Source of the DNA: Actinomycetes bacterium
GTDB taxonomy: Bacteria > Actinomycetota > Acidimicrobiia > Acidimicrobiales > JAJYXR01
Direction of reading: 5' to 3'
NCBI GenBank assembly: GCA_021801525.1
Contig: JAJYXW010000034.1
Coordinates: forward strand, 5,052-69,051
DNA length: 64,000 nucleotides
The notes below the pieces were generated by a model. It did not search any database and was not told the origin of the DNA. It saw nothing but the letters and a program-made list of their open reading frames with translations. The position numbers and the translations under genes were made by a program. Shown here one piece after another: positions 1 to 64,000 of this stretch. Within the stretch, counting starts at the first letter, position 1, and each line of letters starts with the position of its first letter.

Positions 1-6
1 CCGCGT

Positions 7-414
7 TCAGGAGCTCTCCTCGTTCGAGGAGCCAAGACGCCTCAGGATCTCGTCGACCTTCGCTCCGCTCGCTACGGCCGGGTCGGGAGAGAAACCAAGC
101 TGGGGAGTGCGCTTCATCCTCACCTGGCGCCCGATCACCCTCTGGAGCCGGATCCTGTGCTCGTCCAGGGCCTCGGACAGCTCTCCGGGCAGCGAGGCGA
201 GGAAGACCGTCGCGTGCCTGAGGTCTGCCGAGGTATCCACGCCCGTCACGGTCGCAAGGCGAAGGCGCTCGTCCGCGTCCGCGAGCCGCTCGATCTCGTC
301 GGCGAGAACCTCGCGCAGAAGCTCGTTCACCCGCTCGCTCCGACGGTAGGGGGCCGGGCTGCGGCGCCGCTCAGGAACGCGCAACCTCGCGCTCTTCGAA
401 GGTCTCGATGACAT
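7..414 (-). CDS. rbfA: Ribosome-binding factor A
   Basis: 135-aa ORF. RSERVNELLREVLADEI...VTGVDTSADLRHATVF matches the RbfA core. Lies directly downstream of infB, as in the canonical nusA-infB-rbfA operon. Start (ATG 414 or TTG 384) overlaps the infB 3' end. Confidence 0.9.
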   Translation of the reverse strand: MSSRPSKSARLRVPERRRSPAPYRRSERVNELLREVLADEIERLADADERLRLATVTGVDTSADLRHATVFLASLPGELSEALDEHRIRLQRVIGRQVRMKRTPQLGFSPDPAVASGAKVDEILRRLGSSNEESS

Positions 415-3283
415 CGCCCTCTTTCAGATCCTGGAAGTCCGACAACCCGATCCCGCACTCGAATCCGGCCTGCACCTCGCGCACGTCGTCCTTGAACCGC
501 TTGAGCGAGGTGATCGTTCCCTTCCACAGCACCACTCCGTCGCGCAGGAACCTGACGCGCGACCCTCGGGTGACGACGCCGTCGCGCACCTGGCATCCCG
601 CAACCGCTCCGACCCTCGGCACCCGGAAGACCGCCCTCACCTCTGCCTCTCCAGTGACCACCTCTTCGAGCTCGGGTGCAAGGAGGCCCGTCATGGCGGA
701 CTCGATGTCCTCGATCAGCTTGTAGATGATCTCGTAGGCGCGCACCTCTACTGCTCGCTCCGCAGCAAGCTCGCGCGCTCTGCGATCGGGGCGCACGTTG
801 AACCCGATGATCGTGGCATTGGACGCCGCTGCCAGCTGGACGTCGTTCTCGGTGATCCCTCCTACACCACGATGCACGAAGCTGAGCTTCACCGCCTCGC
901 GCTCGAGCTTTCGCAGGCTGTCGGTTATCGCCTCGAGCGAGCCCTGCACGTCCGTCTTCAGTACCAAGTTGAGCGTGGCGGTCTCGCCCCGCTGTATCTG
1001 CTCGAATATGTCCTCGAGGCGTGCCCCGGGAATGCTCGGGGAAGGAGCGTGACCTGCAACTCGGAAACGGCGCTCGCGAGCCTCGCCGATGGTCCTCGCC
1101 TTCGCGAGATCCGCTGTCACGCGTAGCTCGTCACCAGCCATCGGAGGCTCGGAGAACCCGAGCACCTGCACGGGCATCGAGGGCGGAGCCTCCTTTACCT
1201 GCTCCCCCCGGTCGTCGACCAGGGATTTCACCTTTCCCCACGCTGCCCCGGCAACAACCGTGTCGCCCACCCTGAGAGTCCCTCTCTGCACCACGACGGT
1301 GGCAACCGGGCCTCTGCCTATTTCGAGGTTCGCCTCGAGGACGAACCCGCGTGCTCGCCCCTCCGGGCTCGCGACCAGCTCCTCCACCTCCGCCACAAGG
1401 GCGATCTGTTCGAGCAGCTCAGGAACTCCCTCACCTGTCAGGGCCGATACCCGGCACACGATCGTGTCGCCGCCCCAAGCCTCGGGCACGAGGGAACGCT
1501 CCGCGAGCTGCTGCATGACACGATCCGGATCCGCATCAGGCCGGTCGCACTTGTTGATCGCCACCACAATCGGAACGCCGGCTGCCTTGGCGTGCGATAT
1601 CGCCTCCAGCGTCTGAGGCATGACGCCATCGTCGGCGGCCACCACTAAGACCACGACGTCGGTAACTTCCGCGCCACGCGCGCGCATCGCAGTGAACGCC
1701 TCGTGACCAGGCGTGTCGATGAACGTGACGGGCAGCCCGCCAGTCTCGACCTGGTACGCCCCGATGTGCTGGGTGATGCCGCCAGCCTCGCCGGCCGCGA
1801 CATTTGCAGATCGGATCCGGTCGAGCAGGAGGGTCTTTCCGTGGTCGACGTGGCCCATCACGGTCACGACCGGCGGGCGCGGCCGCAGGTCCCCCTCTTC
1901 CTCGGTGTCGTCCGCCAGGTCGAGGTAGCGAGCCTGGAGCTCGGCTTCCTCCTCCTCGCCGGGGTCGACCAGCCGGACGTTGGCACCCAGCTCAGCGGCG
2001 AACAGCTCGATCATCTCGTCGGAGAGCGACTGGGTCGCGGTGACCACCTCGCCCTGGAGGAACAAGAACCGGATGACGTCGCCTGCTGAACGGTTGAGCT
2101 TCGGGCCGAGCTCCCTGGGTGTGCAGCCGCGCTCGACTATGACCTCGTGCTCCGGCACCGGTGCGTTGGAAGGGGTGTAGGTCGTCAGCTGCGTGGGCTC
2201 GAGCTCGTCGAGGTTGCGCCGCCTGCGTCGCACCTTGCGCTGCGGAGCACGGCCCCGGCCTCCGGGCACCCCGCGCCCTGGCGGCGGACCGCCCGCGGGC
2301 GCCCTGCTCGAGAACCCTCCGGTTGCCACCCCTCCGCCACGACCACCGTACCCACCACCAGTTGCAGGCCTCGACGAACCTGACCCCGCTCGCGAACCTC
2401 CTGAGCGACCGCTAGACACGCCCGCCGAAGGTCCACCTGGTCCAGCTGGAGGACGACCTCCTTGTACTCGCCGGCCCGGCGGCGGCGGGATCGGCCGGCC
2501 GGAAAGCGAGCGCGGACCCGGCGGCGGCGGGATGGGGCGCCCCGACGGACTCAAGGGATGCCGCGTCTCCTCAGGGAGCGTGACAGCCCCAGTGGAAGCT
2601 GGTTCCACTTTCCCATCCTCGGGTGGAGCCTGGGCAGCGGGAGCCTGGGCAGACCTGCGTGCCGCAGGAGCAGCTGGTGCTCCGGCAGCAGGAGCCTGGG
2701 CAGCAGGAGCCTGGGCAGCAGGAGCCTGGGCAGCAGGAGCCTGGGCAGCAGGAGCCTGGGCAGACCTGCGTGCCGCAGGAGCAGCTGGTGCTCCGGCAGC
2801 AGGAGCGTCTCCACGAGCCGCAGGACGCGCAGGCGGGACAGGGGCGGCTTTCGGGGGAACCGCCGCCCGAGCCGGAGCGGGGGAGGTCGCCTGGACCTCA
2901 CGCTGGCGCGGAGGACCCGCAGCAGGCTGGCGCTCGCCCGCAGGCTTGCTTGTCACCAGGCGCGCCCGAGCCCGGGAGCCATCTTGCCCTTCGCCGACCA
3001 CCTCAGGTGAGGATGCCCCTTCGCTCCCGGCGCCATCACCGGGTGTTCCCTCGCCGGCACCCCGCCCGTGAGGAGCCGCCTCAGGTGGCGGCGGCTCGCT
3101 GGGAGGCTCCCTCTTTATCCCGTCACGCTCGGCCTTCCTCCGGGCGCGGTCCGCCTGGGCGTCCTCTATCGAGGAGGAGTGGCTCTTCGCGGCAATGCCG
3201 AGCGACCCACACAGATCGAGCGCTTCCTTGTTGGAAATGCCCAGCTCGCGAGCGAGCTCGTAGACGCGGATTTTCTTCGGCAC
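371..3283 (-). CDS. infB: Translation initiation factor IF-2
   Basis: 970-aa ORF. N-terminus [16 protein letters not shown]-domain motifs [26 protein letters not shown]. Long Pro/Ala/Gly-rich N-region carrying tandem repeats. Confidence 0.97.
2475..2558. repeat. 42-bp x2 tandem repeat in infB
   Basis: cccggcggcggcgggat... recurs at 2475 and 2517. Encodes [10 protein letters not shown] twice. Confidence 0.85.
2625..2806. repeat. 15-bp tandem array plus duplicated 51-bp block in infB
   Basis: Unit ggagcctgggcagca occurs about 7 times. Block 2640-2690 is identical to 2751-2801. Encodes (QAPAA)n. Confidence 0.95.
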
Positions 3284-3304
3284 CTGGTCGTGGGGTCCTT
3301 TTTC

Positions 3305-3676
3305 CTAGCTATGTCCGTTGATGAGCCCGTCGCCGGATCGAGCGCCGGTATGGCCTGAACTACCATCCTCGCACACCTTGACACCCGGCCCCGGCGCGAT
3401 GCCCTCCGGTTTGGCAGTTGCCGTCGAAGCAACGCCAAGAAGGCGAGCCAGGTCGTCCAGTCCAGCCTCGCTCACCTCCACTCGCAGCGCCCTTGCGAAT
3501 GCCTTCCTCCGGCGAGCCTCCTCGAAGCAGGAGGTCGATCCCCTGCACAGCCACGCCCCCCTTCCGGCAGACGCCGGGCTCACCACCACAACGGCGTCCG
3601 GGCCCGCAACCAGCCTCACCAGCTCTGCCGGCGGAAGCCTGCGGCGACATCCGATGCAGCTTCGCCTGGCGTCTAT
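3305..3676 (-). CDS. ylxR: YlxR/DUF448-family RNA-binding protein (start codon unresolved)
   Basis: The canonical-start ORF is 3305..3619 (GTG) and contains the GRGAWLC motif. The family N-terminal motif (RRSCIGCRRRLPPAELVRLV) is encoded in-frame upstream at 3620..3667, and no ATG/GTG/TTG exists before the in-frame TGA at 3686-3688. Coordinates are extended to the ATA at 3676, which overlaps the nusA TAG. Position between nusA and infB is canonical. Confidence 0.7.
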   Translation of the reverse strand: MDARRSCIGCRRRLPPAELVRLVAGPDAVVVVSPASAGRGAWLCRGSTSCFEEARRRKAFARALRVEVSEAGLDDLARLLGVASTATAKPEGIAPGPGVKVCEDGSSGHTGARSGDGLINGHS

Positions 3677-63578: not shown

Positions 63579-63612
63579 AAAAAGGGGCGCACCACGAGGT
63601 GCACCCCTTTTT
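63579..63612 (-). terminator. Intrinsic terminator of the rRNA operon
   Basis: On the minus strand, GGGGTGCACC-TCGT-GGTGCGCCCC (10-bp stem with one G.U pair) is followed by TTTTT. It lies ~10 nt after the 5S 3' end. An A-run on the other side makes it potentially bidirectional. Confidence 0.8.
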
Positions 63613-63621
63613 CAGGAGAAA

Positions 63622-63740
63622 TCCGGCGACGTCCTACTCTCCCGGGGGACCTCTCCCCAAGTACCATCGGCGCTGGCGGGCTTAACTTCCGTGTTCGGAA
63701 TGGGAACGGGTGTTTCCCCGCCGCTATGGTCACCGGAAAC
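63622..63740 (-). rRNA. rrf: 5S ribosomal RNA
   Basis: The reverse complement reads GTTTCCGGTGACCATAGCGGCGGGGAAACACCCGTTCCCATTCCGAACACGGAAGTTAAGCCCGCCAGCGCCGATGGTACT...GGGAGAGTAGGACGTCGCCGG, which is canonical bacterial 5S. Ends are +/- 3 nt. Confidence 0.92.
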
Positions 63741-63782
63741 CTAGCGCTCTCCCTTCGAGCGTCTCATAGCGAGCACGAGCAA

Positions 63783-64000
63783 GTCTCCAAACCCTCGGCC
63801 GATTAGTACCGGTCGGCTGAACACGTTGCCGTGCTTACACCTCCGGCCTATCAACGTGGTCGTCTGGCCACGGGCCTTACCAGGTTAACCCTGTGGGAGA
63901 TCTCATCTCGGAACGAGCTTCGCGCTTAGATGCTTTCAGCGCTTATCCCATCCGCAGGTCGCAAACCAGCCGTGCCCTTGGCAGGACAACTGGCACACGA
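63783..64000 (-). rRNA. rrl: 23S ribosomal RNA, 3'-terminal ~220 nt (truncated by the window edge)
   Basis: The reverse complement contains GCTGAAAGCATCTAAGCGCGAAGC and ...CCGACCGGTACTAATCGGCCGAGGGTTTGGAGAC, homologous to the E. coli 23S 3' end (GCUGAAAGCAUCUAAGC ... AACCGGUACUAAUGAACCGUGAGGCUUAACCUU). The 3' end position is approximate. Confidence 0.88.

Follow-up and report, generated by a model that had tools for sequence, protein, structure and literature searches.

The stretch of DNA considered here, a window of 64,000 nucleotides from an Acidimicrobiales bacterium (contig JAJYXW010000034.1, positions 5,052 to 69,051; G+C content 67.9%), carries 26 tandem arrays of short units in and between its genes. 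The arrays are very probably ordinary bacterial variable-number tandem repeats (VNTRs) of the minisatellite type, produced by replication slippage between short direct repeats and filtered by selection. Their occurrence is non-random and lineage-specific, and both reading frame and position in the protein constrain those found in genes. An earlier reading made by eye from the letters (the sequence-only reading) had proposed an active slippage or repeat-generating process filtered by selection, and this proposal is supported by whole-unit changes between strains at least 99.7% identical, by the birth of one array, and by the differing arrays of sister lineages.

Tandem Repeats Finder (TRF; match 2, mismatch 5, indel 7, score of at least 50) reports 26 non-overlapping arrays in the window, 13 of which reach a score of at least 80 and 10 a score of at least 100. 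The units measure 6-57 bp, with a 111-bp unit nested in infB, and are arranged head to tail in 1.9-10 copies. Sequences simulated with Markov models of order 1, 3 and 5 contained 1.0-1.2 such arrays in 64 kb, of which practically none reached a score of 80. The sequence-only reading had listed about 22 arrays, and their unit lengths and locations were largely reproduced. Eleven of the 26 are near-perfect, defined as at least 93% matches, no indels and at least 2.4 copies. These eleven are evenly spaced from 5.7 to 54.5 kb, which indicates that there is no local hot spot; conspecific sequence that extends a further 5.7 kb past the window start adds three more arrays, all imperfect.

Two controls were used for comparison: 80 loci around dxr (1.33 Mb) from Acidimicrobiales genomes, taken among the matches listed, and 600 kb of unrelated high-GC sequence from Nocardia, Arthrobacter, Nonomuraea, Streptomyces, Ralstonia and two Methylobacterium, which consists of chromosomes mislabelled as plasmids and includes several pieces of the infB neighbourhood. 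Per 64 kb, the unrelated control gives 16.1, 4.3 and 3.0 arrays at scores of at least 50, 80 and 100, respectively, and 1.07 near-perfect arrays; the corresponding values for the relatives are 16.4, 5.9, 4.5 and 2.9. The claim of a very high density therefore stands for near-perfect arrays, which are about 10 times denser than in the unrelated control (Poisson P = 2e-8) and about 4 times denser than in the relatives, and much less so for arrays as a whole, whose density is only 1.6 times that of the unrelated control (2.4 times with TRF default penalties). Strong arrays lie between, at 3-4 times the unrelated density. The enrichment is thus narrower than first claimed and holds mainly for near-perfect multi-copy arrays. 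The median relative locus has no near-perfect array, and six relative loci (L043, L064, L005, L024, L019 and L061) have 9-15 per 64 kb.

Comparison of strains provides the most direct view of how the arrays behave. Conspecific contigs were found by exact-protein match to GcvH, chorismate mutase, Frr and RbfA in 18 other assemblies, all short-read, which include JGI 3300039716, several ENA megahit assemblies and NCBI metagenome-assembled genomes (MAGs). Conspecific MAGs include GCA_027410205.1, GCA_027410255.1, GCA_027410135.1 and GCA_028065315.1. Over positions 1-62,000, the contigs share 99.74-99.99% identity with the window; 24 of the window arrays are covered, any one array by 8-11 contigs, and length alleles, given below in bp relative to the window, were measured between flanking anchors. 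The copy-number polymorphism that the sequence-only reading had suggested looking for in other assemblies is present at 12 of the 24 covered arrays, and the lengths always differ by whole multiples of a unit or an 18-bp sub-unit. Between 3.2 and 23.9 kb, the indels found in eight genomes fall only at the three arrays of nusA, pyrH and rpsB. Over the whole window, the indels outside arrays amount to two 2-bp events in a gene for a major facilitator superfamily (MFS) transporter, one diverged spacer and one scaffold gap. Ten of the 11 near-perfect arrays vary, compared with two of the 13 imperfect ones (Fisher p = 6e-4); purity predicts variability, which is classic VNTR behaviour.

Two further repeat events lie outside the window arrays. 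One is a 123-bp segment at the N-terminus of a MerR-family regulator, described below. The other, at the 3' end of aroG (26300-26325), is an array caught at birth: a 16-bp segment with a GCAGC direct repeat at its boundaries occurs once in the window and three times in tandem in three sister contigs (L094, L097 and L100), the structure that slipped mispairing at short direct repeats would be expected to produce. In nine comparisons with at most 10 mismatches per 20 kb, a tally gives about 12 array changes and about 48 substitutions. As a relative and rough estimate, the rate of change per array is roughly 1e3 times the substitution rate per site.

The arrays that persist within genes are frame-preserving. 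Units divisible by 3 occur in each of the 16 arrays that lie within a coding sequence or at its start (binomial probability 2e-8 at one-third), as opposed to 5 of 12 intergenic arrays (Fisher p = 7e-4); among near-perfect arrays in relatives, 52 of 61 have units divisible by 3. The sequence-only reading had noted that coding arrays are all triplet and that the others are largely not. The latter is confirmed by the seven intergenic arrays with non-triplet units. The former stands with two corrections. The 36-bp array at 54454-54579 is intergenic, as gene calls on colinear contigs place it between the stop of a CDP-alcohol phosphatidyltransferase gene (54614) and the start of a nucleotidyltransferase gene (54407). 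In addition, six start-proximal arrays (at rimP, pyrH, aroG, the MBL-fold hydrolase gene, the lipoprotein-like gene and menA) lie upstream of the first domain residue, and for some of them the called start codon falls before the array with some gene callers and after it with others. The six have only units divisible by 3 (p = 1.4e-3), which suggests translation.

Position within the protein is restricted as well. Nearly every genic array lies outside the Pfam or NCBIfam envelope of its protein, in agreement with the termini and interdomain linkers that the sequence-only reading had pointed out; the two exceptions to this pattern, inside rbfA and a menD-like gene, are both weak and imperfect. 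About half to 60% of the arrays are at termini or linkers of core genes when the start-proximal arrays are counted in. The encoded peptides are rich in Pro, Ala, Gly, Ser, Thr and Glu and include QAPAA, EAPAQV, PVPGGTHT, PPNS, PAAGK, (PA)10 and the 19-residue unit of ribosomal protein S2.

Orthologue comparison, also proposed in the sequence-only reading, demonstrates that the arrays are lineage-specific rather than fixed across distant relatives. The best identity of Dxr is 69%, to Acidimicrobiales MAG proteins among the matches listed, which makes the source an uncultured member of this order; an EF-Ts scan of metagenome contigs for relatives of intermediate divergence gave a best identity of 65%. 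The nearest other lineages, at ~75% (L205 and L206) and ~71% (L207-L209) nucleotide identity, were reached only via S2 homologues. In the S2 tail, where the window has a 57-bp unit, the former carries a 15-bp x5.3 array and the latter a 39-bp x3.2 array. The xerC and pyrH arrays are absent in both lineages, and XerC of L207-L209 is a 292-residue protein with no array; the L207 group has only ~0.16 arrays per kb. The Acidimicrobiales S2 homologues range from 259 to 397 residues with a conserved core and hypervariable tails, and 51 of 120 have a tandem peptide repeat in the C-terminal tail, with differing units. The different or missing arrays at orthologous sites indicate that the arrays are young, turn over fast and reuse permissive sites.

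These observations are accommodated by the following course of events. A segment of 6-57 bp would first be duplicated when short direct repeats misalign, through slipped-strand mispairing or a related RecA-independent event. Once at least two copies are present, the array would grow and shrink by whole units at about a thousand times the substitution rate per site. Arrays in genes would survive where the unit is divisible by 3 and where the protein tolerates changes in length, that is, in disordered N- and C-terminal tails and interdomain linkers rich in Pro, Ala, Gly, Ser and Glu, while any unit length would survive between genes. Differences in length would most likely be neutral or close to it and not a switching device, and the species would stand near the top of a tendency that shows up in patches across Acidimicrobiales.

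Several points weigh against this interpretation. The mechanism is read from array anatomy alone, and the arrays have no general hairpin propensity that would favour slippage; hairpin-driven slippage was considered as a general driver and rejected, as fold energies fall on both sides of the genomic background and only three or four arrays are strongly structured. The excess in total array density over unrelated controls is small, and several relatives (L043, L064, L005 and L024) match the near-perfect density of the window over 20 kb; since relatives reach such densities, an elevation in this lineage rests on one 64-kb sample. Recombination between strains, along with consensus effects, could inflate the ratio of array changes to substitutions. 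The comparison was made between contigs only, so that heterogeneity within samples and mis-sizing near the assembler k-mer (141) are possible, the latter for the 57-bp x3.4 and 36-bp x3.5 arrays. With regard to neutrality, some leader arrays carry Shine-Dalgarno-like motifs.

A stronger form of the slippage interpretation, in which this lineage, and patchily the order, runs an intrinsically elevated rate of tandem duplication and slippage of 6-60-bp units, is a tentative proposition that we consider rather unlikely. If it were true, a missing or altered replication or repair function, such as single-strand exonucleases, helicases or the NucS pathway, could be the cause. The tails and linkers of S2, IF-2, NusA, PyrH and XerC, as well as gene leaders, would then evolve mainly by minisatellite birth, homogenisation and loss, and ~200 polymorphic loci per Mb would segregate within one species.

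An alternative is that the arrays are a by-product of composition, in which Pro/Ala-rich disordered tails of high-GC genomes always give many TRF matches and nothing is unusual here. The unrelated controls already hold 16 arrays per 64 kb compared with 26 in the window, and the N-terminal regions of IF-2 and the tails of S2 are repetitive in many of the actinobacterial controls. Array density also correlates with GC among the relatives (rho 0.49), as it does in bacteria generally, where coding sequence favours tri- and hexanucleotide repeats (PMC12699852). Composition does not, however, account for the tenfold excess of near-perfect multi-copy arrays or for the polymorphism of half of the arrays among nearly identical strains, and the seven intergenic non-triplet arrays cannot be an effect of codon composition. 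This alternative is improbable.

It is slightly more improbable that the arrays are kept for adaptive tuning, with changes in copy number reversibly adjusting the expression of core genes or the behaviour of protein linkers and tails, in line with the contingency-like sites envisaged in the sequence-only reading. Such a role would suit the non-triplet variable arrays directly upstream of genes, that is, the 13-bp x6.5 array ending 8 nt before the cmk ATG with Shine-Dalgarno-like units and the 14-bp x3 array before scpA (+28 bp in some strains), as well as the (Pro-Ala)n linker of a MerR-like regulator with its five alleles. The contingency-like label is not supported, as the genic arrays, with triplet units in 16 of 16 cases, are unable to shift the frame, no on/off configuration was seen, and only variation in the length of tails, linkers and leaders was demonstrated. 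The host genes (infB, nusA, rpsB, pyrH, xerC, cdsA, aroG, menA, korA, cmk and scpA) have housekeeping functions; none is a surface, restriction or virulence gene. When the copy number of the cmk array changes, the distance from the last motif to the ATG remains constant. The same arrays are absent from sister lineages, so that no array is conserved as a device, and structural tolerance alone predicts the position pattern (PMC3315296).

That short-read metagenome assemblers made or mis-sized the repeats is highly unlikely. The comparison contigs come without exception from short-read metagenome assemblies or MAGs, two arrays are near or above k-mer or read length, and the exact RbfA protein occurs on so few contigs that assemblies may break near the infB repeats. 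Most arrays, on the other hand, measure 30-110 bp, well inside a read, and their lengths change by whole units while the flanks stay intact. Discrete alleles are common to several independent assemblies (-57 bp in seven, -72 in six and -12 in seven), and the presence of differing alleles at the same arrays in many independent assemblies excludes an artefact of one assembly. The least credible explanation invokes a REP/MIRU-like family of dispersed or mobile repeats, or else an element dedicated to inserting repeats. Only the sheer number of arrays speaks for it. The 26 units have no similarity to each other and only two trivial 15-17-nt matches elsewhere in the window, they are built from local coding sequence, and a search of the window with Rfam at gathering thresholds gave only 5S rRNA and the 3' end of 23S rRNA, with no structured RNA in the leaders.

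The individual arrays are described below along the window, with strand in parentheses where one applies. Genes were assigned by profile searches and gene calls on conspecific contigs; gene calling based on GC3 was dropped, as its noise is too high in this genome. The left part contains a typical actinobacterial run of core genes, mostly on the minus strand, with rbfA, infB, nusA and rimP followed by ispG, rseP, dxr, cdsA, frr, pyrH, tsf and rpsB, and with proS on the plus strand between rimP and ispG. In the ~71%-identity relatives, a DDE transposase (L207, 17299-18765) directly follows rseP, the place of ispG in the window.

The array inside rbfA (266-306, -) is a weak and imperfect 21-bp x2.0 repeat (80% matches, score 54) outside the coverage of the anchor test. 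The N-terminal variable region of infB (2625-2826, -) has a 15-bp x8.9 array nested in the 111-bp x1.8 repeat, encoding QAPAA-type repeats at residues 153-220 of IF-2, upstream of the IF-2 profile (residues 379-970). The infB arrays are the same as in the window in the sole conspecific contig spanning them (L202). The exact RbfA protein is found on only three contigs, compared with 38-47 blocks each for GcvH, chorismate mutase and Frr; two of the three end in or beside infB, where short-read assemblies may break at the repeats. The C-terminal tail of nusA (3759-3819, -) has an 18-bp x3.4 array encoding EAPAQV at residues 379-399, beyond the profile end at about residue 335. Its alleles of 0, +18 and +36 bp in eight genomes, with +36 in L202, give NusA calls of 426, 432 and 438 residues.

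Four sites that follow are invariant in the sample: a 12-bp x3.2 array at the N-terminus or in the 5' leader of RimP (5442-5480, -), a 22-bp x2.9 array in the divergent rimP/proS intergenic region (5695-5757), an 8-bp x2.8 array at the proS stop in the convergent proS/ispG spacer (7249-7270), and the N-terminal extension of cdsA (12769-12926, -), which contains a 30/15-bp x3.3 array (12769-12866) and a 12-bp x1.9 array (12904-12926). CdsA (11216-13099, -) is called as 627 residues with an N-terminal extension of ~340 residues that has no domain match. The extension is kept in the nearest lineages (587 residues), and tandem arrays recur there in relatives.

The N-terminal extension of pyrH (14546-14653, -) has a polymorphic 24-bp x4.5 array encoding PVPGGTHT at residues 5-41, immediately before the profile begins at residue 42; the alleles are 0, -24 and -48 bp, and PyrH is called as 260, 268 or 276 residues. 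The C-terminal tail of rpsB (15498-15634, -) has a perfect 57-bp x2.4 array at residues 245-290, whereas the profile ends at residue 238, and alleles of -57 bp in seven genomes and +57 bp in one give S2 proteins of 271, 290 or 309 residues. S2 scores 327 bits with the "sunset domain" variant NCBIfam NF051451, below the curated cut-off of 710 bits. A gene for a WhiG/FliA-type sigma factor (16483-17358, -) is located between rpsB and xerC, and the window has no flagellar genes. The 15-bp x6.1 array of xerC (17880-17971, -) encodes residues 119-149 in the linker between the two domains and is invariant in the sample and lineage-specific. Also invariant are a 15-bp x3.3 array in the divergent intergenic region between xerC and a substrate-binding-protein gene (18387-18435) and a 23-bp x2.0 array at the stop of a Germane-domain gene (22864-22908).

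The remainder of the window contains genes of aromatic amino-acid metabolism (aroG, aroA, tyrA and chorismate mutase) together with cmk, scpAB and tyrS, and menaquinone genes (a menD-like gene, menA, menB and menE) together with gcvH and korAB. It ends with a 5S rRNA gene and the 3' end of 23S rRNA; the window has no tRNA genes. The N-terminus of aroG (24934-24971, +) has an invariant 18-bp x2.1 array encoding STSQGS. The convergent spacer between aroG and an FAD-reductase gene (26339-26389) has a 13-bp x3.9 array with -26 bp in three genomes, and the N-terminus of the MBL-fold hydrolase (28366-28417, -) has a perfect 12-bp x4.3 array encoding PPNS with -12 bp in seven of nine genomes. The cmk array in the aroA-cmk spacer (30967-31060, -) has alleles of -26 and +13 bp; GAGGTGA, a Shine-Dalgarno-like motif, is present in each 13-bp unit, so that strains would have between 4.5 and 7.5 ribosome-binding-like sites in tandem in this leader. 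The perfect 14-bp x3.0 array directly upstream of scpA (36460-36501, -) is longer by 28 bp in three of nine genomes.

Between scpA and a small lipoprotein-like gene, a VapBC-like toxin-antitoxin pair was identified, which consists of an 80-residue open reading frame (ORF) and a PIN-domain protein (36704-37384, +); the long minus-strand ORF that overlaps this region (36722-37453) is spurious. The lipoprotein-like protein (37447-37953; 164-179 residues), with a signal-peptide-like N-terminus, has a 12-bp x4.0 array encoding VALP (37892-37939, -) that is shorter by 12 bp in five of nine genomes. The region between this gene and tyrS (37988-38161) has imperfect and invariant arrays of 24-bp x1.9 (37988-38033) and 21-bp x2.2 (38115-38161). 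The array internal to the menD-like gene (40165-40198, -) is an imperfect and invariant 9-bp x3.8 repeat encoding AGA at residues 471-482. A perfect 15-bp x4.9 array encoding PAAGK is situated at the MenA N-terminus or in the menB-menA leader (43358-43431, -). It is highly polymorphic, with alleles of -45, -30, 0 and +30 bp in 11 genomes, and would correspond to residues 16-40 of MenA, ahead of the UbiA domain that begins at residue 75.

The convergent spacer between an ADH gene and a bifunctional-nuclease gene (48786-48815) has a 9-bp x3.3 array with -9 bp in one strain. This array folds as a 13-bp hairpin (z = -7.4 relative to genomic background) with no T-tract, and a scan for terminator consensus at the hairpin found none; it may serve as a bidirectional transcription stop made of a tandem repeat. 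The perfect (CAGGAG)x10 array at 50366-50425 (-) encodes the (Pro-Ala)10 linker, at residues 184-204, between the MerR HTH and the Rv1828-type C-terminal domain of the MerR-like regulator, and its five alleles are -30, -6, 0, +6 and +30 bp. The 36-bp x3.5 (18-bp x7) array at 54454-54579 has alleles of -72 bp in six genomes and -18 bp in one. The nucleotidyltransferase gene beside it, downstream of the CDP-alcohol phosphatidyltransferase gene, encodes an 828-residue fusion (51921-54407, -) of a sugar-nucleotidyltransferase, which includes a hexapeptide domain, with a phosphomannomutase/phosphoglucomutase. An invariant 8-bp x5.1 array in the divergent region between the CDP-OH transferase and MFS genes (55261-55301) falls inside the longest (234-residue) call of the former and upstream of the shorter calls.

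Two bp are missing from the MFS transporter ORF (55333-56895) near 56134 (also 56044) in the window, L081 and L083, and are present in eight other contigs. Their absence lengthens the ORF from 409 to 520 residues, so that it overlaps the neighbouring merR, and reflects either a frameshifted allele (pseudogene) or a common consensus error. At the N-terminus of a MerR-family regulator (57030-57066, -), four of nine conspecifics (L082, L084, L085 and L089) have the extra 123 bp, itself a ~15/30-bp repeat, and encode 193 residues, compared with 146-157 residues without it. The N-terminus of KorA (61383-61435, -; residues ~5-22) has an imperfect 15-bp x3.5 array that is invariant in the sample.

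The window is a dense and well-documented new instance of bacterial VNTRs and contains no new type of element or system; a full-text search for literature linking tandem repeats with Acidimicrobiia taxa found no paper. Its most notable feature is the segregation of length alleles in essential translation and transcription proteins within one species. About a dozen polymorphic loci in 64 kb, among strains 1e-4 to 3e-3 substitutions per site apart, would allow strain tracking from metagenomes in the manner of multiple-locus VNTR analysis (MLVA). The arrays alter the lengths of essential proteins from strain to strain, as illustrated by S2, and displace predicted start codons, so that these genes will be split in exact-match protein clustering or mis-called by gene callers. 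The data also illustrate how the disordered tails of core proteins are renewed as minisatellites are born and lost. Should whole genomes confirm the excess of young arrays, the lineage would offer a natural case for learning which replication and repair functions set minisatellite instability in bacteria.

Comparison with known systems places the arrays among familiar kinds of repeats. The contingency loci of Haemophilus, Neisseria and Campylobacter turn surface or restriction genes on and off by means of non-triplet units of 1-8 bp. The window arrays resemble them in being slippage-prone repeats in or upstream of genes with heritable variants, and differ in that no genic unit breaks the frame and the host genes have housekeeping roles. 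The MIRU-VNTR loci of Mycobacterium tuberculosis belong to a family of 40-100 bp that is dispersed over mostly intergenic sites, and 4.4 Mb contain a few dozen useful ones. Like these, the window arrays are actinobacterial minisatellites that vary between strains ~1e-4 substitutions per site apart and can serve as strain markers; unlike these, they are unrelated to each other and locally generated, with ~12 polymorphic loci in 64 kb.

Lin and Kussell (2012) examined short simple-sequence repeats in 42 species and reported that repeats are suppressed in the central parts of proteins and enriched at the termini, largely via structural tolerance, and that repeat-associated indels vary by repeat length and type (PMC3315296). 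The window repeats share the enrichment at protein termini and differ in their minisatellite-size units and in the population evidence from one uncultured lineage. The sequence-only reading knew of no description of such arrays as a genome property; VNTR-rich bacterial genomes are, in fact, well described (PMC1853098). A close likeness is to Burkholderia pseudomallei and B. mallei, which are high-GC and array-rich, with whole-unit differences between strains and a triplet bias in genes (U'Ren et al. 2007, PMC1853098). For B. pseudomallei, the textbook example of a VNTR-rich high-GC genome, ~70 arrays per Mbp by the authors' criteria, mostly of 6-9-bp intergenic motifs, were reported; its intragenic arrays mostly keep to multiples of three, and each locus changes at more than 1e-5 per generation, far faster than point mutation (PMC1853098). 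The window, under differing criteria, corresponds to ~170-400 arrays per Mbp (near-perfect and all TRF arrays, respectively), and, in contrast to B. pseudomallei, its units measure 6-57 bp, about half to 60% of its arrays occupy the termini and linkers of core genes, and no unit recurs elsewhere in the window.

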